Shown here: positions 5,798-57,706 of the stretch, piece after piece
How positions within the stretch are numbered: the stretch's first letter is position 1
Layout: each line of letters starts with the position of its first letter
Origin: a virus
Length of the DNA stretch: 64,000 nucleotides
Direction: 5' to 3' (one strand)
Virus record (IMG/VR): IMGVR_UViG_3300033996_001333
Location: 3,389 to 67,388 of that record
Position numbers and translations under genes: made by a program
Notes under the pieces: generated by a model
Databases searched by the model: none
The model's input: the letters and a program-made list of their open reading frames with translations, nothing else
Told to the model about the DNA's origin: nothing

Positions 5798-6306
5798 GCG
5801 CAAGGGTAACATTTTCTGTGCGAATGCATACTACTCCCATGACAATTGAGACCGAAGCCGTCGAAAAAATTGAGTTGGTTTTCTCGCACATAAAAAACGT
5901 GCAAAGGAGCTGTTACAAGCTTGGCCTGAAGCTAATGAAACGCGGCGACATTGAGCTGGGGCGCAACTTAATCGCAAACGGGCAGATCCATGACAATTCA
6001 AAGTTTAAGGGAATTGAGTTTGCACACCTTTTTCATTCAGACCCCTTGCTGTCCGAAGTCGTAAAACACCATCAGTCAGTGAACCCGCACCACCCTGAAT
6101 ACTGGGGGAGCATTCACGACATGCCCAAAGTTTACGTCGCGGAGATGGTTTGCGATTGGTACGCAAGGTCCACCGAGTTCGGAACAGGAGTGAGAGAGTG
6201 GATTGACGACAAGGCAACCGAAAAGTTCGCCTTTACAGTTGAAGATCCCATCTACGCGACCATACAGGAAATGCTATCGTTACTCCTTGAGCCTTCCTTC
6301 GCCTGA
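5794..6306 (+). CDS. hypothetical protein, possibly HD-like
   Basis: GTG start overlapping the upstream stop. The His/Asp-rich region HSDP...HHQSVNPHHPEY is only a weak match. Confidence 0.35.
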   Translation: MSARVTFSVRMHTTPMTIETEAVEKIELVFSHIKNVQRSCYKLGLKLMKRGDIELGRNLIANGQIHDNSKFKGIEFAHLFHSDPLLSEVVKHHQSVNPHHPEYWGSIHDMPKVYVAEMVCDWYARSTEFGTGVREWIDDKATEKFAFTVEDPIYATIQEMLSLLLEPSFA

Positions 6307-7847: not shown

Positions 7848-8037
7848 AGGGGACCTTGAAAAGTTGGTAGAAAATAGAGACATTCTGAGCTACTCTTACT
7901 CGGAGGTTAAAGGCTGCCAGGGTTCACATGGCGGAGAATACCTGCAACTCATTTTACCGTCCGGAGCTTGCATAGGGATAGGCTCCTGGTCAACACCCAC
8001 CCCTGAAACGAGTGGGCTAAGCATAGAAGTTTATTAG
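7831..8037 (+). CDS. hypothetical protein
   Basis: 68 aa ORF ending just before the ncRNA region. Confidence 0.35.
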   Translation: MPLMIEGDLEKLVENRDILSYSYSEVKGCQGSHGGEYLQLILPSGACIGIGSWSTPTPETSGLSIEVY

Positions 8038-8039
8038 GC

Positions 8040-8400
8040 GGACAGTCCTACCACACGACATTAAACTGGGTGTAGCTCTGGAAGATAGTGCCCTATACAG
8101 GGGTTCGAATCCCCTCACCTCCATTTGAGAACGTGACCGTCCCTTCTTCAACCTTCCGACTTACTGAGAAGGCAGGGTCACTGTGGGTTAAACTCCCACC
8201 TCTAGTCAAGGGGGTGCCATGGTCTCGCTAGGGTAAAGATGTCGCCTGAGTGAAAGCCGCTTGCATAAGCACAAAATAGACGCTAACAACATCGTCAAAT
8301 TCGAGAGGATTGCCGTTGCCGTTTGAGCAACCGCACTCTGACTCATAACTCGGGGGTTTCGGCCCCCTTACACCGCCAACTTTCCTAGCCAAAACAGCAC
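8040..8400 (+). ncRNA. ssrA: tmRNA (ssrA), circularly permuted two-piece type
   Basis: ORF-free 390-nt region. Acceptor piece: T-arm AGGGGTTCGAATCCCCT plus 3' acceptor strand CACCTCC at 8099-8123. Coding piece: GGGGGTGCCATGGTCTCGCTAGGG at 8210 resembles the tmRNA 5' end GGGGCUG.AAUGGUUUCGACG, and pairs with the 3' strand including a G3-U wobble. The tag ORF at 8282-8326, GCT AAC AAC ATC GTC AAA TTC GAG AGG ATT GCC GTT GCC GTT TGA, encodes (A)ANNIVKFERIAVAV*. Compare the Synechocystis tag ANNIVPFARKAAPVAA. Confidence 0.65.
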
Positions 8401-8428
8401 CCTACACTCCAACCCACGCTGAAACACT

Positions 8429-8797: not shown

Positions 8798-9029
8798 AGT
8801 TGTTGTTGCTGAGGGGCCAGACGGAAGAAGGTATATAGCCGAACAAATAGAGCTTTCGAACTCAGTTTGGGACTACGACAGAGAAAGTTGGTTAGTAACT
8901 GAGTTTGGTCCTAGAATTGGTTCCGATGTGTTGCCTTCAGATTGGTGGGACAAGGACGCCATAAACCACTGGGGACGTTCTCAAACTTACGACAATCTTG
9001 ATGCGTTTGCCATACTAGCATCCCACTAA
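8733..9029 (+). CDS. coding-like ORF without a canonical start; possible +1-frame continuation of 8429..8797
   Basis: Open frame YEVVVAEGPDGRRYIAEQIELSNSVWDYDRESW...DNLDAFAILASH* with no ATG or GTG. It overlaps the previous ORF in another frame. Confidence 0.3.
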   Translation, partial: GRKWKTLKKRREEFHGGWTEYEVVVAEGPDGRRYIAEQIELSNSVWDYDRESWLVTEFGPRIGSDVLPSDWWDKDAINHWGRSQTYDNLDAFAILASH

Positions 9030-9083
9030 GACTCCGACACGTTAACCCATCAGAACCAGGCAGGGGCCTAAATCAGTAGGAAA

Positions 9084-9779
9084 ATGAAGATCCAATCAAA
9101 ATTCAAGGACTACTACGACTATGTGGAGTATTTGTACTCTCAAGAAGGTGGTGACCCCTCGAACACTTACGTTCGCAAAGAGCTGTCACAGCCTGACCAA
9201 CCGGACTCTTCGAATGTGTACGTAAACGTCAACGAAACCGAACGCATACCAGAAGTACCCACCAGAAGAGACTACTACGGGGAGATCCTTCCGTGGGCGT
9301 TTAAGTGGTGCTCAGTTTGCGGAGAGCTGTACCTTCTTGTCTCAAAGATAAGTTTTACTCCTGATTGGAGACTAATTACAGAAGACCACCCCTCTCTGCG
9401 CATGGTACACAGCAGCCACCGAAGATGGTTCGAAGAAATTAGGATGGACGAAATATGGGGAGTTCCGAACAAAAGTTGTGTCGATATCTCAAGACAACTT
9501 CAGGTTCCCGTATTCGTGATAGAGCCCACTCCGAGGTTCAGCGGACTCAAAAAGTCGCCTCAAGTGGCCGTAAGTCGCGAGATCCCAATCCTTGGGAAGT
9601 TGGGATTCGCCTCAGCAATTCCGGCTGAGCAAATGTACCAAAATATATCAATGTTTATGGCCTCGCTGAGGGATAGCCCAGACAGTGTTCCGCCTGTGAG
9701 TGTATCGGACAAGGATCGACTCGTGCAGAAGGGGTTTGACGCTAAGATATCTTTTCGAGGAAAGTTCCCCCGTGCATAG
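9084..9779 (+). CDS. hypothetical protein
   Basis: 231 aa ORF. Confidence 0.5.
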   Translation: MKIQSKFKDYYDYVEYLYSQEGGDPSNTYVRKELSQPDQPDSSNVYVNVNETERIPEVPTRRDYYGEILPWAFKWCSVCGELYLLVSKISFTPDWRLITEDHPSLRMVHSSHRRWFEEIRMDEIWGVPNKSCVDISRQLQVPVFVIEPTPRFSGLKKSPQVAVSREIPILGKLGFASAIPAEQMYQNISMFMASLRDSPDSVPPVSVSDKDRLVQKGFDAKISFRGKFPRA

Positions 9780-9868
9780 CCCTTGCCCATGGTGCGAGAC
9801 TCTAACCCTTACCTTGGGTCTTATATCCACCCAAGCAAGCCCGCTCAAACAAGAACCATACAAGGAAA

Positions 9869-10730
9869 AATGACAACTTTCGACAAATGCCTCGGAGCCT
9901 TTATTGGCCTTGCGATCGGTGACGCGATGGGTGCGCCAGTGGAGTTCTCTCCACCGGGGACCTTTGAGACCGTCACAGGTTACCGAGCAGGGGGGCCCTT
10001 TAATCTGCCGTCAGGCTACTGGACGGACGACACATCGCAGGCTGTTTGCCTTGCCGAGTCTTTTATTCATTGCAATGGGCAGATCAATCTTGGAGACCAA
10101 ATGCGTCGGTACTCCAACTGGTACGAGTACGGAAGGAACAGCTCAACAGGTGTCTGTTTTGACATCGGCAATGGAACACTTCGTGCAATTGAGACTTTTC
10201 TCGTTGAGGGGTCTTTGAGTCTCTATCCGGAGAATTCGAAAGGAAACGGGTCTTTGATGCGTTTATCCCCCGTTTCTATTGTGTACCACAAGTCAAGTGA
10301 GCAGGACGCTGTAGCAGCGTGTGACGCGTCATCATCAACAACCCATGGCCACTTGGCATCCGACCTATGCAAAGATCTCGGTCGTTTGCTGCACCAATAC
10401 TTAAATGGCACGGGGGGAAAACCTGAAGTCTCGCCGGAGGGAATTGAAAATTCCGGGTACGCACCGAAGTCCTTAAACGCCGCACTCTACCACTTTGGGT
10501 CAACTTCGTCCTTTGAAGAGGCCATCCTGCAGGCTGTGAACTACGGGGACGACTCAGACACGGTTGCTGCGATTACGGGGCAGCTAGCAGGTGCTTACTA
10601 CGGTTACAAGGCTATTCCTAAGCGATGGGTTTCGGGGTTGCACGACAGCGAAAGACTTTTGCTCATAGCGAGCACTTTGTACGACCTTTCGTTTGGGACG
10701 GTTTCCCCCCTTGTTTCTACTCTGAAATAA
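9869..10730 (+). CDS. ADP-ribosylglycohydrolase (ARH/DraG family)
   Basis: GAFIGLAIGDAMGAPVEF, YWTDDTSQ, GNGSLMRLSPV and YGDDSDTVAAITGQLAGAYYG are ARH family signatures. Start taken at MTTFDK. Confidence 0.75.
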
Positions 10731-10738
10731 CGTATAAT
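10695..10738 (+). promoter_or_regulatory. intergenic element copy 4
   Basis: GGGACGGTTTCCCCCCTTGTTTCTACTCTGAAATAACGTATAAT. Overlaps the 3' end of the ARH gene. Confidence 0.5.
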
Positions 10739-10766
10739 ACCCTTACTTAAGCTCTCGAAACCGCAA

Positions 10767-11138
10767 ATGCATTTCTACGCGATCACACGCCGCGACCTTG
10801 ACCCTGCTCAGCAAGCTATTCAGGCGGCTCACGCACAAGTCGAGTTTGCGAGAGTACACCCTGATTCTTTAGCCCAAGACCACCCACCTTTCGTATGGCT
10901 ATCGGCTGAGAACAAGTGGGAGCTTTTGCAACTCTCGTGTGTTCTTCGGAGTTACGGACTCTCGGTGGTAGAATTTCACGATCCGGACTACAAGGGGTTT
11001 GACCCCAGTGCCCTAGCGTGCCTGGTCGACGAAGACCACCGTTATTTGCTCTCTGAGTTCCCTTTATGGGTTCCGTTCAGGACGCAGTGGTATAACTTTT
11101 CGGTGCCCGACCGCTTGGTGAACCACGCGGAGGGGTAA
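10767..11138 (+). CDS. hypothetical protein
   Basis: 123 aa ORF between the ARH and ART-like genes. Confidence 0.45.
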   Translation: MHFYAITRRDLDPAQQAIQAAHAQVEFARVHPDSLAQDHPPFVWLSAENKWELLQLSCVLRSYGLSVVEFHDPDYKGFDPSALACLVDEDHRYLLSEFPLWVPFRTQWYNFSVPDRLVNHAEG

Positions 11139-11147
11139 AGTACCTTA

Positions 11148-12368
11148 GTGCTTAGTTCGGTTGTACGAATGTACGGAGAAATTTCCCCCGATACCCTAGC
11201 GTTAATACACGACTTCACACGTTGTGTGAAACCGGACGGCGGGGTGTATGGTACAGCAGGACAGTGCCGCAAGGGGGTGGAGTCCGCAAAGGAAACTCGC
11301 AGCATTCGAAGAGAATCTGTTCTCAAGAATGTCAAGATTTACGAAAAGAATGACCCTGACGCTCTAAACAAGAATCTAAGGACTCTTGAGAGGATGTTCT
11401 TATCAAAGCCAGGGTACCGCACACCTCTCACAGAGAGTGCCCTCACCGCAATGCGATACCTTCGCCTAAAGTCCCACTTGGAGAAGAAGGCAGAGCAAAC
11501 ACAACAAAAGGGAGCCCTTCAGGATCAATACGAAGAATTAGTGAGAAACTCACCGAAGTACACGCAAACACCAGGATCGAGCAAACCTTTACCGAAAGCC
11601 TCGGTTGAGAAAGAGGTTGAGCTTCTCGAAAAGGAACTTGAAGCACTGAAGAAAAGAGTCCGAGTAATAGGGGAGCCTACCGACGACGTGTCAAGAGAGA
11701 AGCTTTTACACCTGCAAAAGGAAGGTATGGAGCTCGGTCGAACACTTTCGAGTGCTCGCAAGGGCACCTTGTTACCGCCGATTCTCACTTCTGTGTACGA
11801 ACGGCAAGGGTTCAATGCTCGACCGGAGGTTGTTGCAACGCGATCGGGACTGGAATCAAGAAAGGATATAGCCAGGAACCCTGACGGAAGACCAATTGTA
11901 GCTTATCGCGGTATAAGTTCAAATGAGTTTTCATTGCAGTTCAAAGGTGGTGGTCCCGAAGGAGACAAGCATTTTCCTGGTGGCGGAATTTATGGGAATG
12001 GGAGCTATTCTGCTTCTGCCCCTTTGTCTGGCAAGGTTAAGCATGATAAGTGGGCTCAAGACACGGCGAAGGACTACACGGGTGAAAGTGGGGATAAGTC
12101 AATAAGGGTTTCAGCCTTTGCATTCCGGTCTGACGCTCTACTCGTACAGTTTGAGGGGGACGGGAAGCAGTTTAAGCAGTGGGAAGGAGAGACCCTGCAG
12201 AAAGCAAGAGAGATTACGGGGTACGACCATCACGATGTGGGGTCAGCCGCTGCATCTCTGGGAATACATGCGTATAGAGTTCCACAGACCGATGGCCAAG
12301 ACTTCTGGGTTGTACTTAATCGGGGAGCAATTATCGTCGCAAACGACCCCGAATTAACACCGGACTAA
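11148..12368 (+). CDS. putative ADP-ribosyltransferase (Alt/Mod-like R-S-ExE candidate)
   Basis: The C-terminal half has AYRG (Arg), GSYSAS (STS-like) and QWEGE (ExE-like). The N-terminal half is coiled-coil. Confidence 0.4.
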   Translation: MLSSVVRMYGEISPDTLALIHDFTRCVKPDGGVYGTAGQCRKGVESAKETRSIRRESVLKNVKIYEKNDPDALNKNLRTLERMFLSKPGYRTPLTESALTAMRYLRLKSHLEKKAEQTQQKGALQDQYEELVRNSPKYTQTPGSSKPLPKASVEKEVELLEKELEALKKRVRVIGEPTDDVSREKLLHLQKEGMELGRTLSSARKGTLLPPILTSVYERQGFNARPEVVATRSGLESRKDIARNPDGRPIVAYRGISSNEFSLQFKGGGPEGDKHFPGGGIYGNGSYSASAPLSGKVKHDKWAQDTAKDYTGESGDKSIRVSAFAFRSDALLVQFEGDGKQFKQWEGETLQKAREITGYDHHDVGSAAASLGIHAYRVPQTDGQDFWVVLNRGAIIVANDPELTPD

Positions 12369-12369
12369 A

Positions 12370-12525
12370 ATGAACATCAACAACCCCACCACCAGTCGCA
12401 CTCTCGCGGCACTCATCCAGAACATTGCAGCGGATTCCCGCGAGCAGTTTCGACAGGATGCCGCCAAGGCCCCAGACATGAAAACCTTTCTGAAAGGGTT
12501 GAACCGATACAAATCAACTCTGTGA
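12370..12525 (+). CDS. small hypothetical protein (51 aa)
   Basis: ATG immediately after the upstream stop. Below the track size cutoff. Confidence 0.35.
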   Translation: MNINNPTTSRTLAALIQNIAADSREQFRQDAAKAPDMKTFLKGLNRYKSTL

Positions 12526-12913
12526 GACTTTCTTGCGGTGAGACTGCTTATGGCGAAGCAATGGAAAAGCTTTTCACAGCCCAGTGGAACATTCCTCAAG
12601 CAGCCGCTGCACTCGGAAAGCCAGCGAGCGAGGAAAGCTGGGAAGAAACGAAAGAATTATTCCGTGAGTATTGCTTGGAACACCCACCTATCGCCTTCAA
12701 CGCCGGGTAGTTTACCAACTCGAGAAAGCGATATACTGTGAAAGTCCTGAGACGTAAATACGTCGCCCGTTATGAGTGGGTTCCCTGTCTTCGCAGACAA
12801 GGTAGGACTCGGAGCCTAACATTGCGCTCTTAAATCAACTGTGCCGTGGGAAAACGCACCTTGAAACAGGTGAGTGACCGTTTCCTATACGGATGCCGAA
12901 TTCTCTTCAATAA

Positions 12914-13552
12914 ATGCTCAACCTTGCTACACTTGTGGCCGTCTCCCTCGTTGGAACTGCTGCAACCCCCTTCAGCAACACCGTTGCCGCTAGGGACATT
13001 GCCCCAGAAACAACTTTCGAATCGCGCTTCATTTGCACAGGCTGCGGTCCAATCAATTCTCTGCCAACTCTCGCTTACAAGCTCACACCAGAGCGTAGAG
13101 CCCTGTTAAACACCATTCGCTTCGCTGAAGGAACCTGGAAAGAAGGCCATAGTGATGGCTACCGGGTTGTATTTGGGGGTGGAACGGTGTCCACGCTAGA
13201 CAGACATCCAAATCAAGTACGTTACTCGCTGCGTTATGCTAGCGCAGCGGCAGGTGCCTACCAGTTCATGCCCGCCACTTGGCGAGAGGCGTCCATCAAA
13301 CTAGGTCTCAACGACTTCGGGCCAGCCAGCCAGGACCAGGCTGCTCTTTATTTGATTGACAGGCGCAACGCTCTCGGTCTAGTTGACGCGGGACGAATCA
13401 CTCCGACACTAGTATCAAAGCTCGCACCAGAATGGGCTTCCCTTCCAACTTACAATGGAAGCAGTTACTACGATCAGCCGGTCAAAACCTACGACAACCT
13501 TCGCCTCTTCTACGAAAACAACTTGGCGATGCTGCGCCAGGAGGAAGGTTGA
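12914..13552 (+). CDS. lambda R-type lytic transglycosylase endolysin with N-terminal signal/SAR segment
   Basis: AEGT, GYRVVFGGG, DRHP, AAGAYQFMPATW, LGLNDFGPASQDQAALYLIDRRNAL and WASLP align to lambda R (SEGT, GYDVIVGGE, SDHP, GAGRYQLLSRWW, LGLKDFSPKSQDAVALQQIKERGAL, WASLP). N-terminal hydrophobic MLNLATLVAVSLVGTAA. Confidence 0.75.
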   Translation: MLNLATLVAVSLVGTAATPFSNTVAARDIAPETTFESRFICTGCGPINSLPTLAYKLTPERRALLNTIRFAEGTWKEGHSDGYRVVFGGGTVSTLDRHPNQVRYSLRYASAAAGAYQFMPATWREASIKLGLNDFGPASQDQAALYLIDRRNALGLVDAGRITPTLVSKLAPEWASLPTYNGSSYYDQPVKTYDNLRLFYENNLAMLRQEEG

Positions 13553-13671
13553 TGGGCGGTTTCCCGAACTTTACCTTAGGCTCTTTACGAGTTATACTGG
13601 GGTCCAGCCCGAAACGGCTTCAGCTAGGAACACCTTCGCTGGGCCAACGGGCACTGAGCCGTGGTTGCGCA

Positions 13672-14061
13672 ATGCAACAAACACGGATGTTCAACTCTAC
13701 TTTATCCATGCGTCTTACAAGACTCGCTTCATTCTTCCTCGCTGCCGGACTTCTTTCCGGAGCCCCCGCTCAAGCCAAGCAGTGCGGTCAAGCCAGCTGG
13801 TACGGTCCAGGACTGTACGGAAACAAAACTGCCAACGGCGAGACCTACCGTCCTGGGACAATGACTGCTGCTCACCCCTACCTCCCCCTCGGGTCTTGGG
13901 TGCGAGTTGTCAATCGCGACAACGGTCTTATTGCCGACGTTCGCATTAACGACCGGGGACCGTTCGTTGGTGGACGAATCATCGACTTGGGACACGGATC
14001 TGCTCAACGCCTTCGAGTAACTGAGAGTGGACTCGCTAACGTTTGCATCACTCGCATTTAG
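13672..14061 (+). CDS. RlpA-like double-psi beta-barrel protein (secreted)
   Basis: GQASWYGPGLYGNKTANGETY...GSWVRVVNRDNG...VRINDRGPFVGGRIIDL is an RlpA/DPBB signature. Signal peptide present. Internal start of track ORF 13432. Confidence 0.65.
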   Translation: MQQTRMFNSTLSMRLTRLASFFLAAGLLSGAPAQAKQCGQASWYGPGLYGNKTANGETYRPGTMTAAHPYLPLGSWVRVVNRDNGLIADVRINDRGPFVGGRIIDLGHGSAQRLRVTESGLANVCITRI

Positions 14062-14068
14062 CCCCTTC

Positions 14069-14100
14069 GGGTGATGACCCTGGTTATCACCCTTTTCCTT
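14069..14100 (+). terminator. rho-independent terminator
   Basis: GGGTGATGACCCTGGTTATCACCC hairpin followed by TTTTCCTT. Confidence 0.55.
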
Positions 14101-14102
14101 AG

Positions 14103-14381
14103 TTGTCTTTCCCAATGATCTTCTACGATTCAGCCACCGCTCAACGATTTGGGACTCAATTGTGCGAAGCACGGCTTTCTCAGGGATGGTCCAAGCAGGA
14201 CATTGCGTTTGCCGCACAAATACCCGTAGAACTTCTTCGAAAGATTGAGCGTGGCTCCGAGGTAGACGTGGGATTTGTGGCAGATGTTGCAAAAGTGCTT
14301 GGGATTGTATTCACAATACTGCCTTTCCGTTCAACACCGTTTTTTACCGTCGAATGTAATTCTCTTGAGGTTAATCCATGA
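14103..14381 (+). CDS. XRE-family HTH protein
   Basis: LSQGWSKQDIAFAAQIPVELLRKIERG is HTH-like. Confidence 0.5.
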   Translation: MSFPMIFYDSATAQRFGTQLCEARLSQGWSKQDIAFAAQIPVELLRKIERGSEVDVGFVADVAKVLGIVFTILPFRSTPFFTVECNSLEVNP

Positions 14382-14623
14382 AAATGTTACAGCTTAAGCA
14401 GAAAGAACCCAACGGCTTCACCCTCTTAGAACTCGTAATTTGCGTCTCCATCACTCTCATACTCCTTTCTATTTCATCGAGTTTACTCTTTGGTAAAAGT
14501 CCGTACAGAATGAGTGACTGTGTTCGATCCGGGGGAAACTGGACCGAAGGCACGGAGAACGGCAGCCCTCTCGCTCTTTGCACTTATGGCCCTGGCCATG
14601 GCTCCACAAGTCCTGAGAACTAA
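14378..14623 (+). CDS. small membrane protein with prepilin-type N-terminal motif (alternatively holin/spanin-like)
   Basis: KEPNGFTLLELVICVSITLILLSI resembles the G/FTLIE class III signal of type IV pilins. Start overlaps the upstream stop (ATGA). Confidence 0.45.
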   Translation: MKMLQLKQKEPNGFTLLELVICVSITLILLSISSSLLFGKSPYRMSDCVRSGGNWTEGTENGSPLALCTYGPGHGSTSPEN

Positions 14624-14745
14624 CGCAACCACCGTAGTTGTAACTCTAAGAGGGTTAGCAAAGTTTTGCAAAGGTTCGCACCCTTACAACTACTTTCCGG
14701 GAATTGTAACCCGGTTCTGTACAGAAAACACACACAAAAACAAAC

Positions 14746-15312
14746 ATGACTTTTAAACTTATTGCCGCATTGGCAGTTGTCTCCTTCCTGTCAACTCCTG
14801 TAATGGCGTCCGAGGTTGGAAATTACGTCGGAGTTGGAGTGAATCTTAACCGCCAAGGCGTTGACGGTACTGAGTACACTTCGAATCGCACGGTCGCTGG
14901 TGTCGCAGTTCAGTCTCGGTTCCGTCTGAGCGAGCCATCCAAGGTATCCGCTTCTGTTCGCCCGTACTTTAACTTTGCGGCTGGACCGAACAGCCAAACT
15001 GGTACTGCCGCTGGTGTCCTTGGCACCGTTGATTTCTCCCTTACCGGACGCGAAGTTGCTGATTCGTATATGAGTGACACGAACCTTTACGTTGGTGTGG
15101 GGGGTCAATGGGCGTTGACAAACAACGGACAAGCCAATTACCAGACGAGCGTAGGCCAAGGTTCCCAGTTCCTCTTCGTTGCTGGTGTTGAGCGTTCCTT
15201 CTCGCCGTCCCTCGTCGGGTTCGCTGACGTGAAGTTCCCCACTCAAACGAATGGTGTTTCGGGGACGGCCTACGCACCTGTCGGCACCGTTGGCCTGGGA
15301 TTCAAGTTCTGA
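14746..15312 (+). CDS. outer-membrane beta-barrel protein (OmpA/OmpW-like)
   Basis: Signal peptide MTFKLIAALAVVSFLSTPVMA, alternating beta-strand pattern, C-terminal GLGFKF aromatic terminus. Confidence 0.55.
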   Translation: MTFKLIAALAVVSFLSTPVMASEVGNYVGVGVNLNRQGVDGTEYTSNRTVAGVAVQSRFRLSEPSKVSASVRPYFNFAAGPNSQTGTAAGVLGTVDFSLTGREVADSYMSDTNLYVGVGGQWALTNNGQANYQTSVGQGSQFLFVAGVERSFSPSLVGFADVKFPTQTNGVSGTAYAPVGTVGLGFKF

Positions 15313-15327
15313 TCCCCGTCTAATAAA

Positions 15328-15353
15328 AGGGAGGGTAACCCTCCCTCTTTCCT
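15328..15353 (+). terminator. rho-independent terminator
   Basis: AGGGAGGGTAACCCTCCCT followed by CTTTCCTT. Confidence 0.5.
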
Positions 15354-15366
15354 TCAAAACCACAAA

Positions 15367-15708
15367 ATGATCAACTTTCGACAGGACATAAAAGAACGAC
15401 TTGAGCGGTCTAAGTTGACAGAACTAGACCTTGAAGAAGCTTGTTGCAACTACGTTTATTTGCGGCTGGGTGTAAACCCTTGCATGTCACTTAAGCAGTA
15501 CTACGAGATGAAGGGAGTGTATGTAAACGACTACAGCGAGGATAGCGATGTCAATAAACCTCTTTGGGTGGAACAGATTCACCATGTCATGTCGTTTATA
15601 GAAATGACGCTGGCTGTTTCTGGCATGGTAAGCACTAAGGCGGACAGGCAAATAGACGAGATTTTTAGGGCGGCAGCAGAGGAACCCTCACGGGTTGCCC
15701 CCGATTAA
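15367..15708 (+). CDS. hypothetical protein
   Basis: 113 aa ORF. Confidence 0.45.
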   Translation: MINFRQDIKERLERSKLTELDLEEACCNYVYLRLGVNPCMSLKQYYEMKGVYVNDYSEDSDVNKPLWVEQIHHVMSFIEMTLAVSGMVSTKADRQIDEIFRAAAEEPSRVAPD

Positions 15709-15724
15709 ACATACGGTGGGTCAA

Positions 15725-15771
15725 GGGGACGGTTTCCCGCCCTTGTTTCTGCATCGCAGAAACGCTATATT
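15725..15771 (+). promoter_or_regulatory. intergenic element copy 5 (canonical)
   Basis: GGGGACGGTTTCCCGCCCTTGTTTCTGCATCGCAGAAACGCTATAT. Confidence 0.6.
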
Positions 15772-15794
15772 AAATCAGTTGAAGGACACCCGCA

Positions 15795-16163
15795 ATGACA
15801 AACCCGCAGTGGGACGACAAAGAGTACCGGGAAGCTTATATGGAAGCATCCATTGAGCAAGCGATTTCCTGGCAAGTAAAAATAAACAGGCAAAAGCGAG
15901 GTTTAACAAAACAACAACTTGCAGATAAGGCTGGAGTTAAAGTGGGAGTTATAGAGAGGTTAGAAGACCCCGAGATAAACGACCACAGCATCGATCTCCT
16001 GGTGAAAGTGGCCAAAGCTTTTGACTGTGCTCTGTCAATTAAACTAATTCCCTACGAGCAACTCGCGCAAGAAAGTCTCGATTTGTCCGAAGAGGCTCAG
16101 TATGCCCCACCCTTTCACACTCGCACCTACCCGTTAACCCACTCGCCGGAACAAACCCAATGA
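15795..16163 (+). CDS. XRE-family HTH protein
   Basis: RQKRGLTKQQLADKAGVKVGVIERLE is HTH-like. Confidence 0.5.
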   Translation: MTNPQWDDKEYREAYMEASIEQAISWQVKINRQKRGLTKQQLADKAGVKVGVIERLEDPEINDHSIDLLVKVAKAFDCALSIKLIPYEQLAQESLDLSEEAQYAPPFHTRTYPLTHSPEQTQ

Positions 16164-39159: not shown

Positions 39160-40281
39160 ATGGCAAACATCGAACGCAAACTCGCCTCCGTCCGACAAGT
39201 AACGGAGATTCGCCCAATCCCGGACGCCGACGCAATTGAGTGCGCCATCGTGGGAGGTGGCTGGCCCGTTGTCGTGAAGAAGGGGGAGTTCCAAGCTGGC
39301 GATCTTGCAATCTACTTCGAGATTGACTCGTGGATCCCCCACGGGCTTGCCCCGTTCTTGTCAAAGGGGAAGGAACCAAGGGAGTACAATGGAGTGAAGG
39401 GGGAAAGGTTGAAAACCGTCCGGCTCCGTGGCCAAGTCTCTCAGGGTCTCCTACTTCGCTTCTCGGACATCTCTCCAAGCTTCTACGTTGTTTCGCTAGC
39501 TGAACCTTATGGGGGGAGGGGATCTCTCCGAGTTGATGAGTGTGTGTGGGAAGAAGGCGAAGATTTCACTCTAGAGTTTGGCATTCAGAAATGGGAGGCC
39601 ACGGTCCCCGCTTGCCTTGCCGGACAAGTGCGTGGAAACTTCCCGAGTTTTTTGGTTAAGAGTGACCAAGAGAGATGTCAAAATATCGTGAGAAAAATCT
39701 TCGAGGAGCACAAGGAGGAAACCTACGAAGTATCCTTGAAGCTGGACGGGTCTTCCTGCACCATTTATGCCCGAGACGGGGACAGTGGCGTGTGTAGCCG
39801 CAACCTAGACCTTAAGGAAACAGAAGGAAACAGCTTCTGGAAGGCTGCTCGAGAACAAGGTGTAATCGACGCCTTGCTGTCCTATAATAAGGAAACCGGT
39901 CGCAACATTGCTCTTCAGATGGAGCTGTGCGGTGAAGGAATTCAAGGAAACCAAGAAGGAATCAAAGGACAACGGCTTTTTCTTTTTGACGTCTTCGACA
40001 TCGACACTCAGACCTACATGAAGCCGGGGCAGCGACTTGTTTTCCTTGACGAGGTTTTGACTGAGCTTGGGGCCAAGTTGGAACACACTCCCATTATTGA
40101 CCTTCGAACTTACGTTGCCGGACGATTCGCCAACCTTGACGAGCTACTTGCTTATGCAGATGGTCCGTCTATGAACCCAAAAGTCAAGCGTGAAGGTGTG
40201 GTGTTCAAATCGTACGACTCCGCGTTCTCCTTCAAGGCCATTAGCAACGAGTGGTTGCTGTGGAAAGGGAAGAAAGGGTGA
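39160..40281 (+). CDS. RNA ligase, DraRnl/DRB0094-like (Rnl5 family)
   Basis: N-terminal KLASVRQVTEIRPIPDADAIECAIVGGGWPVVVKKGEFQAGDLAIYFEIDSWIP resembles the DRB0094-family N-domain. Motif I candidate VSLKLDGSS (KxDG). Confidence 0.55.
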   Translation: MANIERKLASVRQVTEIRPIPDADAIECAIVGGGWPVVVKKGEFQAGDLAIYFEIDSWIPHGLAPFLSKGKEPREYNGVKGERLKTVRLRGQVSQGLLLRFSDISPSFYVVSLAEPYGGRGSLRVDECVWEEGEDFTLEFGIQKWEATVPACLAGQVRGNFPSFLVKSDQERCQNIVRKIFEEHKEETYEVSLKLDGSSCTIYARDGDSGVCSRNLDLKETEGNSFWKAAREQGVIDALLSYNKETGRNIALQMELCGEGIQGNQEGIKGQRLFLFDVFDIDTQTYMKPGQRLVFLDEVLTELGAKLEHTPIIDLRTYVAGRFANLDELLAYADGPSMNPKVKREGVVFKSYDSAFSFKAISNEWLLWKGKKG

Positions 40282-40299
40282 GGGTGAATTGCCCCTTAA

Positions 40300-40343
40300 G
40301 GGCGGTTTCCCGCCCTTGTTTCTCCGGGGGCAAAACGCTATAA
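40300..40343 (+). promoter_or_regulatory. intergenic element copy 19 (canonical)
   Basis: GGGCGGTTTCCCGCCCTTGTTTCTCCGGGGGCAAAACGCTATAAT. Confidence 0.6.
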
Positions 40344-40376
40344 TAAATGAGTCAGTTCACCCCGCACTAAACCTAA

Positions 40377-40649
40377 ATGTCCGCCCCAACCTCGTATGAG
40401 TACCCTCAGGGCACTACTCCCGAAGCGATTGAAGCCTTTCGCACCATCTGGTGTCAAACACCCGAAGACGACATCCGCTTAGGTCCCGTCTTTGAAATAT
40501 TCCTGAAGGGGTTTGTTGCCGGTCGGATTTCCATATTTGAGCAACTTTCCTACGGCATCTCGGACTTGGACGAGAGGGTTGAGGACCTGGAGCGATTCCG
40601 AAACGCAACCGCAAATTACGACTCGTTCGGCGACTACACACGACAATAA
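40377..40649 (+). CDS. hypothetical protein
   Basis: 90 aa ORF. Confidence 0.45.
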   Translation: MSAPTSYEYPQGTTPEAIEAFRTIWCQTPEDDIRLGPVFEIFLKGFVAGRISIFEQLSYGISDLDERVEDLERFRNATANYDSFGDYTRQ

Positions 40650-40762
40650 AGCCACTATTCCAAACTCTCCTGACCTAACCTTAGTTGTAGCTGTACGTTA
40701 TTCACATACGGCTCAGTACGCCCTACGGTTACACTCTCCGGTCCAAACCGCAAATCTCAAAA

Positions 40763-40975
40763 ATGGAACTACTTGCCATAGCCCTGTTCAGTGTAGCCAT
40801 CGGTGCCATAGGCTACACCTGCGATCGACGAGACTGGAACGGGGGCTTCTGCAGGGAGTCCGGTAAACCGTGGGTTCAGTTTGACACCGCAAGCGATGGC
40901 TCCCGAGGATATAGGGACGGGTCTGATAACTACATTTGGATTTCTTATCCCGTCGACCACTCGAAAGTTTCCTAG
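40763..40975 (+). CDS. hypothetical protein
   Basis: 70 aa with N-terminal hydrophobic segment. Confidence 0.4.
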   Translation: MELLAIALFSVAIGAIGYTCDRRDWNGGFCRESGKPWVQFDTASDGSRGYRDGSDNYIWISYPVDHSKVS

Positions 40976-41023
40976 TGCCCTCAACCGTGCCATTTCAACT
41001 CCCCATATACACAACCACCCCAA

Positions 41024-41326
41024 ATGATAAATCCAGAAGACCGAATCTTGTTCGACCCTCTCACTGAAACTTTCACGTATCCTGACGGGATTCAAGAAAC
41101 CCTGGCCCAATACAAACGACGAACTTACCAGTTCGAGTACATTCGCAATCTCCAGAGTGCACTCGAAGAACTTAAGGTTCTTTACCAAAACCCTGGCTGC
41201 ATGACCAAATCCGAGTACGAAAAGGCCAAAGAGAAAATCCAGGACGAGTTCGACTACTGGGAACTCAACCTTTTCATCGAGTACGACGATGACGACTTTG
41301 GTAGTTCACCTAAGTATCCGCATTAA
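41024..41326 (+). CDS. hypothetical protein
   Basis: 100 aa ORF. Confidence 0.45.
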   Translation: MINPEDRILFDPLTETFTYPDGIQETLAQYKRRTYQFEYIRNLQSALEELKVLYQNPGCMTKSEYEKAKEKIQDEFDYWELNLFIEYDDDDFGSSPKYPH

Positions 41327-41359
41327 CACAAAACTCTGGCTAACTCATCACTCGTCAAA

Positions 41360-41527
41360 ATGTCTCCACTACTCTCCGCGCTCATCTGGATGTTTATAAT
41401 GTGGGTGTCCATATTTTTGGGTCTCGTACGTTACAGGGAAAATAAACTAGGGTGGGCTTCCTTTAATTTTTTGACCACCGTATTAGCACTTTGCAACCTT
41501 ATAGGTTTGCTTCTGAAACCCAATTAA
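41360..41527 (+). CDS. small membrane protein (55 aa)
   Basis: MSPLLSALIWMFIMWVSIFLGLV... has two hydrophobic segments. Below the track cutoff. Confidence 0.35.
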   Translation: MSPLLSALIWMFIMWVSIFLGLVRYRENKLGWASFNFLTTVLALCNLIGLLLKPN

Positions 41528-41531
41528 CCGT

Positions 41532-42041
41532 ATGAGTACACTTTATAGGGCCAACGGAGACCTGTTAGTGCTGGCTCGCAAGGGTCAGTTTGACATAATT
41601 GTCCACGGCGCCAATTGTTTTAATAAGATGGCTTCAGGCATCGCGGGGCAAATAAGCCGTGAGCACCCTGAAGCAGCGAACGTTGACCTTTCCACTCGGG
41701 CAGGGGACCGGGGCAAACTCGGTCGTTTTACCATGGCACAGGTTCAAGGGAGCGGTAACCATACTTTCTACATTGTCAACGCATATACTCAGTACTCGTA
41801 CGGAAGGGGCAAAGACATTTTCGAGTATGACTTTTTCCGAGACTTTCTCAAAAGTTTTCAAACTTTTTTAAGGAGCGGCGCCATGGCTGCGCCACTGGAC
41901 GGGAAGTTTGCGGTAGGATTCCCATACATTGGGTGCGGTCTCGCTGGCGGAGACGAAGAAAAGATAGTGAATATGCTCGAAAGTTTTTCCGGATCGTGCC
42001 ACGATATTGCGGAAGTCACTCTCGTACGGTACGTGCGATGA
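41532..42041 (+). CDS. macro domain protein (ADP-ribose binding/hydrolase)
   Basis: IVHGANCFNKMASGIAGQI and GFPYIGCGLAGGD match the macro-domain patterns VNAAN...GGGVA.AI and FP.I.tGi.G. Confidence 0.65.
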   Translation: MSTLYRANGDLLVLARKGQFDIIVHGANCFNKMASGIAGQISREHPEAANVDLSTRAGDRGKLGRFTMAQVQGSGNHTFYIVNAYTQYSYGRGKDIFEYDFFRDFLKSFQTFLRSGAMAAPLDGKFAVGFPYIGCGLAGGDEEKIVNMLESFSGSCHDIAEVTLVRYVR

Positions 42042-42216
42042 CCTCTCTGCAGTGGTTAAACATCGCCTCGTGTGCTGCTCGTCGCCTCTTTGGCCTACGA
42101 CTTCAAGGGTCGTCCACTGCCGAGTCTCAGACCGGAGAGAAAGCAACTATAGACATGGCGCTGTCCAAGGCGAATTTAAGATCGTATTTCCAGCCGAACA
42201 GCACAAGATGACAGTT

Positions 42217-42262
42217 GGGGGCGGTTTCCACCCTTTGCTTTTCGGGGTAAATGGGCTATACT
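42217..42262 (+). promoter_or_regulatory. intergenic element copy 20
   Basis: GGGGGCGGTTTCCACCCTTTGCTTTTCGGGGTAAATGGGCTATACT. Confidence 0.5.
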
Positions 42263-42317
42263 AGCTTTAGGGAGTTCACCCTCTACAACGAACTCCTAGA
42301 AACCTTTCTCAAAGAAA

Positions 42318-42638
42318 ATGAAAACCTTTCTTGAACCCTTGCGCAGAGTCAACTACGTGGTTGTTGGTAACAGAGCCGTGGACGCGGCACTGACTACGAT
42401 TGCGTGGTCCGTTCTCCTTTTTGGCCTTGCGGGCAAGGCTGCTAAGGCTCTAAGACCCCACCTTGTCGTTGCCCTGAAGGCACTGCTTAATGCCCTGGAG
42501 GAGCCACCGTCACCGGTCCAACCCCTTGCTCTTGCAGAGTCTCCTGCGCCATCCCCGGTTGTCTCAGCACCTGCTGTCGCCAGAAAAAGGCCCACCCGTC
42601 GCGAGCCTGCACAACACAAAGGATTTCTACGTGGCTAA
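42318..42638 (+). CDS. hypothetical protein
   Basis: 106 aa, Ala/Pro-rich. Confidence 0.4.
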   Translation: MKTFLEPLRRVNYVVVGNRAVDAALTTIAWSVLLFGLAGKAAKALRPHLVVALKALLNALEEPPSPVQPLALAESPAPSPVVSAPAVARKRPTRREPAQHKGFLRG

Positions 42639-42682
42639 GGGCGGTTTCCCGCCCTTGCCTTTCAGACGGAAAAACGCTATAG
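42639..42682 (+). promoter_or_regulatory. intergenic element copy 21 (canonical)
   Basis: GGGCGGTTTCCCGCCCTTGCCTTTCAGACGGAAAAACGCTATAGT. Confidence 0.6.
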
Positions 42683-42689
42683 TTATATC

Positions 42690-43427
42690 ATGAATAACGT
42701 TACTTCCAATTTTGCCTTCATCGGCGACCTACACTCTCAGAGAAAGCCCCTGCTCAAAGCACTCGATTATTGCCGAGGAGCAAATTGCACACCAATTTTC
42801 CTCGGCGACCTTTTTGACTCTCGCATGGAAACAAGCGACAGTGTGGGTGTGTACAAAGCCGTTCGGCAAGCCGTGGAAGAAGGGGCGATTGTGCTTCGAA
42901 GCAACCACCAAAACAAGCTGGAGCGTTACGCTCGCGGGAACAACGTGGTTCTTAAAGAGGGCTTTGAGCGTACTGTGCAAGACTTCTCAGACGCAGGTAT
43001 CCCTATTGAGGAAGTCTCTGCCTGGCTGGAAACTTTTCCCTACGGGGTTGCCTTGCGAGATTCCAGAGGGACAGAGTACCGTTGTGCTCACGCGATGTTT
43101 CCGAAGTGGGTTCTTGTTCCGCCGTCTTACACAGGAGTATACCGTGTGAATGAGGTTACGAGAAAAGCCAAGGACTACATGCTATTTGGTCCTCGCCGTC
43201 CCGGTGCGGTGTACCCTCAAGATGAGACTCGTGTCTTTTGGTGGGAAGAGGAATGCGATCGGACCTGGGTTCGTGTCGCAGGGCACTACCACCACGTTCA
43301 CACGAGCGAGAAGAGCCTGGTTCTCGACGGTCAGATGGGTGGCAGCACTCAGAAAAGTTTTGACCCGGCGCACGCTCGCCTCTGTGTGTGGAACCTGGAA
43401 GAACAGACCCTTGTTCAGTTTGCTTAG
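42690..43427 (+). CDS. calcineurin-like metallophosphoesterase
   Basis: FIGDLHSQ...IFLGDLFDSR...SNHQN matches the GDxHG / GDxxDRG / GNH(E/D) pattern. Confidence 0.6.
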   Translation: MNNVTSNFAFIGDLHSQRKPLLKALDYCRGANCTPIFLGDLFDSRMETSDSVGVYKAVRQAVEEGAIVLRSNHQNKLERYARGNNVVLKEGFERTVQDFSDAGIPIEEVSAWLETFPYGVALRDSRGTEYRCAHAMFPKWVLVPPSYTGVYRVNEVTRKAKDYMLFGPRRPGAVYPQDETRVFWWEEECDRTWVRVAGHYHHVHTSEKSLVLDGQMGGSTQKSFDPAHARLCVWNLEEQTLVQFA

Positions 43428-57202: not shown

Positions 57203-57706
57203 GTGAAAACCGCTGTAACGTTTGGTCGGTTTAACATTGGTCATCCTGGCCACGTTGAGCTAGTTAAAAAGTTACTCACCCTCGGTTCGACCGCTAAAGT
57301 ATATGTGTCCGTGGGGAGAAAGAACAACGATTGGGACCTTCGAGTTTTACTTCTGCGAACGCTATGCCGCCAAGCAAGCATTGACCTGAGTAGGGTATCA
57401 TTTCTAAAGGCCATCGATCCCTATGCGGGGTTGTCAGATGTGCTAAAAAGCAGGAAGCCAAGCGAGGTGGTTCTCGTTCTGGGGTCTGACCAAGCTTCAC
57501 TCGGACTGCAACTTTCGCACTGCTTTGGTGTTTCTTTTCACGAGAACGAACGAAGTGGTTCGAGCACGGCACTAAGAAAGGTTTTAGACCAAGGCAAAAC
57601 TCCTGCGCCTTTCCAGGGAAACAGGTACGCTTTTAAACTTGCAACACTCTTGAGGCACAATGAAAAGTTCCGAAAAGCTCAAAGAAAAGTTAAGGCGTCT
57701 GCTTAA
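57203..57706 (+). CDS. cytidylyltransferase-fold nucleotidyltransferase, NMN adenylyltransferase (NadM)-like
   Basis: TFGRFNIGHPGHVELVKK resembles the (H/T)xGH motif GRFQPFHxGH of NadM-type NMNAT. GTG start. Confidence 0.5.
   Translation: MKTAVTFGRFNIGHPGHVELVKKLLTLGSTAKVYVSVGRKNNDWDLRVLLLRTLCRQASIDLSRVSFLKAIDPYAGLSDVLKSRKPSEVVLVLGSDQASLGLQLSHCFGVSFHENERSGSSTALRKVLDQGKTPAPFQGNRYAFKLATLLRHNEKFRKAQRKVKASA

Follow-up and report, generated by a model that had tools for sequence, protein, structure and literature searches.

A candidate toxin-like effector module with a divergent ADP-ribosyltransferase fold next to an ADP-ribosylglycohydrolase gene in a phage genome

Background

Host takeover by phages, and the conflicts between toxins and immunity proteins, depend centrally on phage ADP-ribosyltransferases (ARTs) and the antidotes to them. 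A 64,000-nucleotide stretch of the virus record IMGVR_UViG_3300033996_001333 (IMG/VR; positions 3,389 to 67,388), referred to here as the window, raises the question of whether such an enzyme and its antidote are encoded side by side. An earlier note on this DNA had proposed that an ADP-ribosylglycohydrolase (ARH) gene, a putative ART gene of the R-S-ExE class and a macro domain gene 30 kb downstream make up an ADP-ribosylation toolkit, with a writer and an eraser. We examined these genes and their neighbours (Table 1). In our reading, to which we give about an even chance, the region encodes a toxin-like effector module of the phage and not just a writer with its eraser.

The closest known system is Bxa-Bsi-BAH. 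Bxa, from a Bacteroides stercoris prophage, carries MuF at its N-terminus and has ADP-ribosyltransferase activity, and it is neutralised both by Bsi, a small binder that occludes the active site, and by BAH, an ARH-family hydrolase (PMC11699363). Small ORFs that follow MuF toxins are a further precedent (PMC5576092).

Table 1 Features identified in the window (nucleotide positions within the window; residue numbers count from the GTG)
Feature	Position	Strand	Description or basis
p231	9084..9779	+	231 aa, function unassigned, conserved left flank; PHROG 4243 E 9e-20
ARH	9870..10730	+	ARH/DraG/Tri1 family, PF03747; lineage-specific insertion between p231 and p123
p123	10767..11138	+	123-aa conserved protein, possibly PTH2-like; synteny, weak profile matches
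ART-fold effector gene	11148..12368	+	406 aa from GTG; probable true start ATG 11169, giving 399 aa
Two-cysteine N-terminal leader, aa 22-43	11211..11276	+	DFTRCxxPxGxxYGTxGxCRKG; family conservation
Long helical (coiled-coil-like) linker, aa 51-204	11298..11759	+	AlphaFold2 prediction
C-terminal divergent ART-fold domain (C-domain), aa 206-406	11763..12365	+
Conserved residues of the C-domain	R254 11907-11909; Y287 12006-12008; H374 12267-12269; D385 12300-12302; N391-R392 12318-12323	+
p51	12370..12525	+	51-aa partner ORF, start 2 nt after the stop of the ART-like gene; candidate immunity protein or chaperone
p62	12522..12710	+	62-aa conserved small ORF; conserved downstream of p51
PRPP synthetase	16436-17449	+	Pfam Pribosyltran / Pribosyltran_N
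NAMPT	17446-18960	+	Pfam NAPRTase E 5e-34
RNA-repair-type cluster with macro gene	39160..43427	+
RNA ligase	39160-40281	+	Pfam PHA02142 OB-fold and RNA_ligase
Macro-like gene	41532-42041	+	PHROG 335 E 5e-39
Pnkp-like metallophosphoesterase	42690-43427	+	Metallophos 6e-6; NCBIfam bacterial Pnkp 1e-8; PHROG 8238
NMNAT-like cytidylyltransferase	57203..57706	+	tblastn; without the cysteine leader

The ADP-ribosylglycohydrolase gene

The ARH protein matched Pfam PF03747 (ADP_ribosyl_GH), the check suggested by the earlier note, with 208 bits against a curated cutoff of 26.2, and the E-value of 2.3e-61 places this family match far beyond chance; it also matched PHROG 6572 (E 8e-61). All four ARH/DraG motifs that the note had quoted were found. 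The ORF that it had placed at 9869-10730 exists, with the start off by one base: the ATG lies at 9870, the frame read from 9869 contains 12 stop codons, and the longest ORF over the gene starts at TTG 9783. In a blastn search of positions 9000-13600 against a collection of deposited phages, the sole match was 122 nt within ARH.

The motifs GDAMGAPVEF, WTDDTSQ and GDDSDTVAAITGQLAGA aligned residue for residue with the solved structures 2cwc (E 3e-63) and Tri1 6dre (E 6e-56). GDAxG, WTDDTS and GDDxDT are kept in this alignment, and with them the metal site of the family (GDAxGxPxE / T-D-D-T / D-x-D-T). We take the aligned positions to be metal-coordinating from what is known of ARH1, ARH3 and DraG, and none of the residues whose loss had been named as an objection is missing. 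Judged from the alignment, ARH looks catalytically intact.

In the Serratia T6SS pair Tre1-Tri1, the ARH Tri1 protects against an ART toxin by taking ADP-ribose off arginine, and its N-terminal extension is the part that occludes the toxin. The Tri1 ADP-ribosylarginine hydrolase model was the best NCBIfam match of the window ARH (E 5e-69), and Tri1 was its second-best solved relative. On the other hand, the match reached 233 bits against an equivalog cutoff of 490, the alignment covers Tri1 only from residue 66 onward, and there is no T6SS context at the window locus. As the DraG model also scored under its equivalog cutoff (135 bits, cutoff 337), specificity for ADP-ribosylated arginine is not assignable to this enzyme.

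The ART-fold effector protein

The second gene downstream of ARH is the 406-aa ORF that had been described there, and the N-termini of its homologues in the alignment of the ART-like protein family line up with the MYG encoded at 11169. AlphaFold2 gave a full-length model with a pLDDT of 88.9, in which the N-terminal half, described earlier as a coiled coil, is predicted to be helical over aa 51-204. Within the predicted structure, the C-domain has the split beta-sheet of the ART fold. Structure comparison thus bore out the proposal that the neighbour of ARH has an ART-superfamily fold; its structural neighbours were diphtheria/exotoxin-A-like and RES-like, the best being protein-modifying toxins of the DT/ExoA type.

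Sequence profiles gave no such assignment. Pfam and NCBIfam searches with the ART-like protein returned no match, neither to the ART models expected by the earlier note (Alt-like, ADPrib_exo_Tox) nor to MuF (PF04233), and a Pfam domain was present in 0 of 37 full-length homologues. Searches against PDB sequences and profiles with the protein, its close family, a 24-sequence profile and a diverse 34-sequence profile found nothing relevant. The Pfam ART-type matches that could be located in relatives fell in domains other than this one. One of 64 distant relatives had a weak Pfam PARP match (E 6e-4), which may or may not overlap the C-domain; two scans of 10 proteins each and a motif search did not find this relative again. 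The sole PHROG match of the C-domain is annotated as a minor head protein, and clusters of homologues are named only as hypothetical proteins.

Conserved residues were examined in 164 C-domain sequences. R254 is kept in 162, G285 in all, Y287 in 161, N391 in 159 and R392 in all 164, and both R254 and G255 are invariant in 38 close homologues. R254 ends the predicted strand 251-255 and Y287 lies on strand 285-290; judged from this order of structural elements, they may line the NAD+ pocket. D385, which starts strand 385-389 in the subfamily of the window, is Asp in 101 of the 164 sequences, and most of the others have Asp at 374. His at 374 is accompanied by D385 in 64 of 67 sequences, while position 385 varies freely when Asp is present at 374, which indicates that an acid is kept at one or the other position in nearly every sequence. 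An Asp at these alternative positions is our candidate for the catalytic acid, and among the 164 sequences no conserved Glu was found where the fifth core strand begins, the place of the catalytic Glu in ARTs. Taken together, R254, Y287, N391-R392 and the covarying acid look like an active site.

These residues do not fit the R-S-ExE class to which the protein had been assigned (T4 Alt/ModA/ModB, C3, VIP2; ADPrib_exo_Tox). The Arg of the AYRG motif was well chosen, being R254. The GSYSAS segment does lie on a conserved strand, but the motif that is conserved there is G-N-G-[ST]-Y287 and not S-T-S. The supposed ExE motif QWEGE (aa 344-348) is best regarded as a chance match, since its glutamates vary, W345 being its only conserved residue, and since it lies inside the predicted helix 340-357. 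With neither S-T-S nor ExE, no Pfam ART match and structural neighbours of other types, the R-S-ExE class was rejected. The classical ADPrib_exo_Tox domain is moreover separate from the C-domain in the polyvalent relatives P0180 and P0105. What the effector has in common with the group of Alt, ModA, ModB, C3 and VIP2 is its phage origin, its membership of the ART superfamily and an Arg on strand 1.

The C-domain also differs from the H-Y-E clade of diphtheria toxin, exotoxin A and cholix. Its first strand carries Arg (YRG) in place of His, it has no conserved Glu and instead has Asp at 374 or 385 together with the invariant N-R, and its sequence identity to these toxins is 10-14%, with no profile-level similarity. 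RES-domain toxins (MbcT/ParT) are recognised by a RES profile and a cognate antitoxin, and no Pfam RES match was obtained.

The C-domain may use NAD+ without being a protein ART, that is, as an NADase or NAD+ phosphorylase (RES/MbcT) or for ADP-ribosylation of phosphates or nucleic acids (Tpt1/KptA, DarT), in which case an arginine-type ARH would not be its eraser. We regard this as unlikely, given that the best structural matches are protein-modifying toxins, that no Pfam match to RES, PTS_2-RNA or DarT was found and that three different arrangements place ARH close to the gene.

The small downstream ORF and the spread of the C-domain

The constant companion of the C-domain is p51. A homologue of p51 lies directly downstream of the stop codon of the C-domain in 88 of 91 loci, those with MuF-fused forms included, so p51 is an obligate partner of the domain. 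Across seven loci, p51 homologues show 43-92% identity; a homologue search gave 23 clusters, none named and none with a Pfam domain, and no fusion of p51 to the C-domain was found in the tail of the cyanophage PSS2 protein gp030 or in any collected protein. The position of p51 is that of the small downstream ORF of MuF toxin/immunity systems, and by analogy p51 is most likely a binding-type inhibitor, i.e. a candidate immunity protein, or a chaperone. Since p51, and not ARH, is the constant partner, the layout resembles a phage toxin with two immunity proteins more than a simple writer and eraser.

The C-domain family comprises 931 representative clusters at 50% identity, and in 132 of 163 proteins the domain stands at the C-terminus. 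It is usually the last domain of phage MuF head proteins, in which a Zeta-toxin kinase, or a classical ART as a domain of its own, is often present too. MuF proteins carrying the C-domain, with or without Zeta_toxin, include PSS2 gp030 and 6 of 8 long relatives; besides PSS2 gp030, MuF-borne C-domains were seen in P0065, P0070, P0074, P0088, P0090, P0095 and P0119. PSS2 gp030, the sole match to the window C-domain in the annotated phage collection, is 31% identical to it over aa ~1179-1376. It differs in being a 1499-aa polyvalent head protein with MuF and Zeta-toxin kinase domains, encoded beside the portal gene, in having a further ~120 aa after the C-domain-like region and in that no p51 homologue was detected downstream of it. 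Other polyvalent relatives pair the C-domain with a classical ART, NUDIX or DUF3626 domain. From their descriptions, 'Ct_MAD' and the C-terminal domain of Mu gpF (a BECR-type RNase fold or the COG2369 C-terminus) appear to be distinct from the ART-like domain studied here.

It could be argued that the ART fold of the C-domain is that of a pseudoenzyme or serves for binding, as a structural part or scaffold of the head or ejection apparatus without NAD+ chemistry, with p51 as its assembly partner and ARH unrelated. The active-site-like set of invariant R254, Y287, N391 and R392, the glycine-rich loops and the covarying acid argue against this, and the tight pairing with p51, which resembles that of a toxin and its immunity protein, points to catalysis, as does the combination of the C-domain with NAD/ADP-ribose enzymes in polyvalent proteins. 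We give a low probability to a scaffold without catalysis.

The leader motif occurs once in the 64-kb window. It is conserved across the effector family, where it is sometimes duplicated, and it is present in 39 of 155 proteins bearing the C-domain. It also heads the NMNAT-like protein gp158 of S-CBWM1 and a 428-aa protein of locus L010, and it is found on the unrelated proteins P0038 and P0039 and on the products of neighbouring genes in L004 and L008.

Linkage of ARH to the ART-like gene

Three arrangements bring ARH and the ART-like gene close together: that of the window and L011-13, that of L092 and that of L090/L094. In two of the gene orders, from lineages that are 51-61% identical, it is adjacent or separated by one small gene, and in L092 this is a p62 homologue lying between ARH and the ART-like gene. 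In L003, L011-L013, L015, L016, L090 and L094, p123 and the ART-like gene are preceded by a p231 homologue, and p123 adjoins the ART-like gene or ARH in L003-L008, L011-L016, L090, L093 and L094. The p123 protein matched PHROG 1866 (E 7e-5) and PHROG 3668 'hydrolase' (0.04); the sole solved-structure match of its profile, Ta0108 of the PTH2 family, was not significant (E 0.35).

ARH is missing at the position that it has in the window in L003, L015 and L016, and in most related ART-like loci none lies within 8-10 kb. Thus, ARH is a facultative component. The earlier proposal of a writer/eraser pair stands in so far as the two genes recur together in several lineages; the pairing is not obligate.

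Given that most related loci lack ARH and that L093 has it without the ART-like gene, it may serve another purpose. It could be independent of its neighbour and, in counter-defence or host takeover, strip off the ADP-ribose added by host ARTs, its place being no more than a hypervariable accessory slot. In L093 the slot is the same (ARH-p123-lysozyme) but the ART-like gene is missing, and in L090/L094 ARH is 6.5-7 kb away, beside a Band_7 gene. Moreover, the stretch from p123 to DPBB appears mosaic, as it is 78-95% identical to L011 while its flanks are 98-100% identical. Against this stand the finding of ARH no more than one small gene away from the ART-like gene in two gene orders, in divergent lineages, the immunity hydrolase Tri1 as its best family match and the precedent of Bxa and BAH. 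We consider independence of ARH possible, if on the unlikely side.

NAD+ salvage and RNA-repair genes

Downstream of the effector locus, the window encodes a PRPP synthetase and a NAMPT, and this order is found downstream of the ART-like gene or ARH in L004, L006, L008, L011-L016 and L093. The NMNAT-like gene was identified by tblastn with S-CBWM1 gp158 (E 9e-13) and the 428-aa protein of L010 (E 3e-21), and a Pfam CTP_transf_like match (7e-5) was obtained in one window ORF. A megablast search of positions 14001-39000 against the deposited phage collection gave no match. It is pure speculation that the effector might act on the PRPP synthetase of the host, like the RES toxin ParT, and that the phage enzyme would be a bypass.

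The macro domain gene reported earlier was found as an ORF and is macro-like by its PHROG match, but it scored under the cutoff of Pfam Macro (PF01661; 17.1 bits, cutoff 22, E 0.005). Its best solved relative was yeast Poa1, an ADP-ribose-1''-phosphate phosphatase (E 7e-4). Its place in an ADP-ribosylation toolkit was not upheld: the gene is 30 kb away and, being flanked by the RNA ligase and the Pnkp-like phosphatase, probably serves RNA repair or ADP-ribose-1''-phosphate processing rather than acting as a second eraser.

Discussion

Compared with Bxa-Bsi-BAH, the window has a C-domain from an ART-fold family that is also carried on MuF head proteins, p51 as the small ORF beside a toxin-like domain in the place of Bsi, and an adjacent ARH-family hydrolase in that of BAH. 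It differs from Bxa in that its C-domain, known here from its sequence and model, matches no ART profile and has no conserved Glu, and in having a cysteine-motif leader and coiled coil in place of MuF. Unlike BAH, the window ARH is facultative, and the window genome is jumbo phage-like (closest relative ~277 kb) and not a known prophage.

Our preferred reading is that of an effector module, in which the effector consists of a two-cysteine leader, a helical linker and a highly divergent ART-fold C-domain. The C-domain would most likely be delivered into, or act in, the newly infected cell, because in many other phages MuF head-morphogenesis proteins carry it as cargo at their C-terminal end; T4 Alt is likewise carried in the phage head and injected (PMC5512222). 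Delivery in the virion would then extend to a stand-alone effector that lacks MuF. There the C-domain would act with NAD+ on a host target, which it would modify or deplete, and it would presumably be toxic, while p51 would keep it harmless in the producing cell as a binding-type inhibitor or chaperone. ARH may act as a second, facultative layer that some lineages have gained and that removes the ADP-ribose attached by this or another transferase; action on the product of the effector would make the arrangement mirror that of Bxa, with its small binder and its hydrolase. The PRPP synthetase, NAMPT and NMNAT-like genes of the phage may keep NAD+ available.

A bolder proposal, which we find rather improbable, is that the C-domain represents an undescribed ART clade with a catalytic set that lacks Glu, made up of the Arg and Tyr of strands 1 and 2, an Asp that changes position and the invariant Asn-Arg, and with a chemistry or target unlike those of the phage ARTs known so far. 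It would always be inhibited by p51, and in jumbo phages the cysteine leader, also present on an NMNAT, would be an address label for NAD-handling cargo.

The C-domain defines a large ART-fold family that matched no Pfam, NCBIfam or solved-structure profile in our searches. If it is inactive, an ART fold has been recruited as a virion component. If it is active, it would be a new catalytic variant, probably with new targets, in the NAD+ biology of phages, and the dual immunity of Bxa, by a binder and a hydrolase, would extend beyond prophages of the gut to large phages of aquatic origin with NAD+ salvage genes.

A divergent ADP-ribosyltransferase fold

The 406-aa ORF, here the ART-like gene, exists, and its homologues indicate the ATG at 11169 as the true start. 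The protein had no match in Pfam, NCBIfam or PDB sequences; its C-terminal half matched a 'minor head protein' family in PHROGs. By tblastn, one annotated relative was found, cyanophage PSS2 gp030, in its C-terminal region; the gene of this 1499-aa MuF and Zeta-toxin 'head morphogenesis' protein adjoins the portal gene. A database search yielded 37 full-length homologues, none of which had a name or a Pfam domain. The AlphaFold2 model built from the homologue alignment was confident (pLDDT 88.9), with long helices (aa 51-204) between a small beta motif at the N-terminus and an alpha+beta C-terminal domain (C-domain, aa 206-406), whose listed fold relatives include many PARPs, the anti-CRISPR ADP-ribosyltransferase (ART) AcrF11, Rhs ART toxins and DarT. 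Searched against 1.84 billion representatives, a C-domain profile matched 931 representative clusters at E <= 1e-3.

Residues were counted in 164 domain sequences aligned to the C-domain profile. G285 and R392 were found in all 164, R254 in 162, Y287 in 161, N391 in 159, D363 in 140 and H275 in 127. The strand IVAYR ends with R254; Y287 is on the core strand that follows, within G-N-G-[ST]-Y-x-A, which resembles the G-x-G-x-Y-F-A strand found in PARPs and in exotoxin A. An earlier note had read the protein as a putative R-S-ExE ART from the motifs AYRG, GSYSAS and QWEGE. The first two fall on conserved positions; in the last, the supposed ExE, which is inside a predicted helix, W345 alone is conserved. 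No conserved glutamate was detected in the C-domain among the 164 sequences. Position 385, the first of strand 385-389, is Asp in 101/164; at position 374, Asp occurs in 86 sequences and His in 67. These positions covary: His374, as in the window, is accompanied by Asp385 in 64/67 cases, whereas with Asp374 position 385 varies freely. Therefore almost every member has Asp at position 374 or 385, as though a catalytic acid had moved. By the order of secondary-structure elements in the model, position 385 would be that of diphtheria toxin Glu148.

Thus the fold of the C-domain is ART-like, its Arg/Tyr/Asp/Asn-Arg set agrees with neither the R-S-ExE nor the H-Y-E pattern, and no described ART family matched it by sequence. 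Calling the protein an ART holds at the level of fold, but not with the ExE and type first assigned to it. Compared with the defining features of R-S-ExE ARTs, the protein did not qualify, and this identity was rejected. Whether the C-domain is catalytically active we consider about evenly balanced.

Domain architectures and a mobile leader

The C-domain ends the protein (tail <=15 aa) in 132/163 cases. MuF was at the start of 6 of the 8 long relatives scanned, 3 of these 6 also having a Zeta-toxin kinase, and was also found in P0119 and in 5/64 relatives scanned. Since two relatives (P0180 and P0105) carry a classical ADPrib_exo_Tox/ART domain separate from and upstream of the C-domain homologue, and in another (P0154) the homologue comes after DUF3626 and NUDIX domains, the C-domain is a distinct module, found with NAD/ADP-ribose enzymes in polyvalent head-associated proteins. 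In the literature, such C-terminal domains of MuF proteins have been read as effectors that travel in the capsid and are delivered together with the DNA (PMC5576092, PMC5512222, PMC9503650).

The domain is present twice within three single proteins (P0108, P0120 and P0121), and some phage genomes have two diverged ART-like paralogues, 44-49% versus 90-93% identical to the window; loci L011 and L017 share one 277-kb contig, and L012 and L039 one of 190 kb. In L009, 2.7 kb downstream of the ART-like gene and its small partner, a gene for 309 aa weakly matches the classical ADPrib_exo_Tox domain; therefore some such phages carry both a canonical and a divergent ART.

The window type has an N-terminal two-cysteine leader, M-x-G-x-[FI]-S...DFTRCxxPxGxxYGTxGxCRKG, in 39/155 domain proteins, often with M-x-G-x-F-S ahead and sometimes twice in one protein. 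The leader is mobile, heading unrelated proteins in related phages: NMNAT-like proteins of Synechococcus phage S-CBWM1 and L010, the unrelated P0038 and P0039, and neighbouring genes in L004 and L008. It might be a shared targeting or packaging label, which is a guess.

A small ORF follows the toxin-like gene

The 51-aa ORF p51 starts 2 nt past the ART-like stop codon. Its homologues in seven loci were 43-92% identical, and in 88/91 loci with sequence past the domain stop codon an HMM detected a homologue immediately after it, including loci with ~740-aa domain forms, the size class of P0074 (MuF by Pfam). The homologue search with p51 reached no named family, and no fusion of p51 to the C-domain was found. 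A small ORF directly after a toxin is the layout expected of a toxin with a binding-type immunity protein (PMC5576092), and by analogy we infer that p51 may be such a protein for a C-domain toxin.

The ADP-ribosylglycohydrolase and its linkage

The ADP-ribosylglycohydrolase (ARH) ORF was present with all four motifs quoted previously; its start is the ATG at 9870, one base further on than noted. Because it matched Pfam ADP_ribosyl_GH (E 2.3e-61), aligned with T. thermophilus ARH 2cwc (3e-63) and Tri1 6dre (6e-56), and kept GDAxG...E, WTDDTS and GDDxDT in these alignments, it is, judged by sequence, an ordinary, bona fide ARH-family enzyme. The best NCBIfam models, Tri1 and DraG, both scored under their equivalog cutoffs, so that neither assigns it a substrate. 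In a survey, ARH-type domains occurred in about 5% of jumbo phages, where they were argued to act on macromolecular ADP-ribose adducts (PMC9503650).

The order p231-ARH-p123-ART-like-p51-p62-lysozyme was found in the window and L011-L013, and the same order without ARH in L003, L015 and L016. No ARH lay within 8-10 kb in L004/5, L008/14, L009/18-21 and L010. In L092, an ARH (61% identical) is followed by a p62-like ORF and an ART-like gene (51% identical); in L090 and L094, the ARH is 6.5-7 kb upstream of p231-p123-ART-like; L093 has ARH-p123-lysozyme with no ART-like gene in 20 kb. The association is facultative both ways, and its recurrence in different gene orders argues for some functional tie.

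The 123-aa protein p123, encoded between the ARH and the ART-like gene, is conserved beside either of them in many relatives. Its sole solved-structure match, to the PTH2-family protein Ta0108, was non-significant (E 0.35).

Genome setting

All substantial ORFs are on the + strand, and the genes are those of a large phage: lysozyme, a DPBB lytic transglycosylase, an EF-Ts homologue (6e-30), tRNAs and the genes listed in the table. Other ORFs match thymidylate kinase, 5'-3' exonuclease, DUF932, DUF1937 and DUF4326. No DNA-level relative was found among deposited phages: megablast of 14001-39000 gave no match, and blastn of 9000-13600 matched only 122 nt of the ARH. Near relatives are present in IMG/VR, the closest being L011, on the 277-kb contig, with an ART-like protein 93-94% identical; further homologues were on phage contigs of 65-268 kb. 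Across 9084-18960 the divergence from L011 forms a mosaic: identity is 100% for the p231, ARH and Prs proteins and 98% for NAMPT, and only 78-95% for the p123-to-DPBB segment, which suggests recombination or faster evolution of an effector island.

In conserved synteny 4-6 kb downstream of the ART-like region are the genes for PRPP synthetase and NAMPT; an HNH endonuclease gene comes next, and relatives keep this order. With the NMNAT-like gene, the first two make up an NAD+ salvage set, which is circumstantially in keeping with a phage that uses up NAD+ and also restores it.

The macro ORF is present and macro-like, though under the Pfam threshold. No tie to the ARH locus, 30 kb away, was found. 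An RNA ligase gene ends 1.25 kb ahead of the macro gene, and 0.65 kb past it comes a metallophosphoesterase (best NCBIfam model, bacterial Pnkp). Among solved structures, the closest to the macro protein is that of yeast Poa1, which is an ADP-ribose-1''-phosphate phosphatase. The window also has another RNA ligase, RlaP and a PNKP-type domain; among its ORFs is one with an AAA_33/HAD_PNKP match. The more economical reading is that the macro gene serves RNA repair or the processing of by-products. The RNA-repair set is extensive (4655-6306, 24531-25769 and 39160-43427, the last including the macro-like gene and Pnkp-like phosphoesterase).

Features of the window and of related loci
Feature	Sequence	Coordinates	Strand	Remark
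RlaP	window	4655-5797	+
DUF5662	window	5794-6306	+
Permuted (two-piece) tmRNA	window	8068-8326	+	Rfam tmRNA_permuted, 67.9 bits (gathering score 47); ARAGORN 8034-8417, predicted tag ANNIVKFERIAVAV; 1.5 kb upstream of ARH
p231	window	9084-9779	+
ARH	window	9870-10730	+
p123	window	10767-11138	+
ART-like gene	window	11148-12368	+
Two-cysteine leader	window	11211-11276	+
p51	window	12370-12525	+
p62 (62 aa)	window	12522-12710	+
PRPP synthetase and NAMPT	window	16436-18960	+
HNH endonuclease	window	19060-19650	+
T4 Rnl1-type ligase	window	24531-25769	+
Pentapeptide-repeat protein	window	29746-30396	+
Second RNA ligase, PHA02142 OB fold	window	39160-40281	+
Macro gene	window	41532-42041	+
Band_7 protein	window	44402-45220	+
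DUF2828/DUF7788 protein	window	46649-48133	+
tRNA, 112 nt	window	49986-50097		Rfam; possibly intron-containing; absent from ARAGORN calls
tRNA-Ile(tat), 90 nt	window	54904-54993		ARAGORN; below Rfam gathering score
NMNAT-like gene	window	57203-57706	+
Leader-bearing gene	L002	4004-4663
Leader-bearing gene	L004	5333-5998
Leader-bearing gene	L008	6424-7998
Leader-bearing gene	L010	4907-6193
Weak ADPrib_exo_Tox gene	L009	12033-12962

Comparison with a known toxin system

The toolkit of ARH, ART and macro domain proposed in the earlier note was partly right; it missed the key partner, p51, and the macro gene probably belongs elsewhere. By its proposed roles, the locus has its best functional analogue in the prophage toxin Bxa, a MuF-ART that two proteins neutralise: Bsi is small, binds the toxin and blocks it, and has been modelled in the toxin's active site, while BAH, encoded next to it, is an ARH and takes the modification off (PMC11699363). 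Unlike Bxa, the window protein has no MuF, a new leader, atypical catalytic residues and a jumbo-phage setting. As in the Bxa system, there would by analogy be three roles, taken here by an ART-fold domain of non-canonical type, an obligate partner of 51 aa and an optional ARH.
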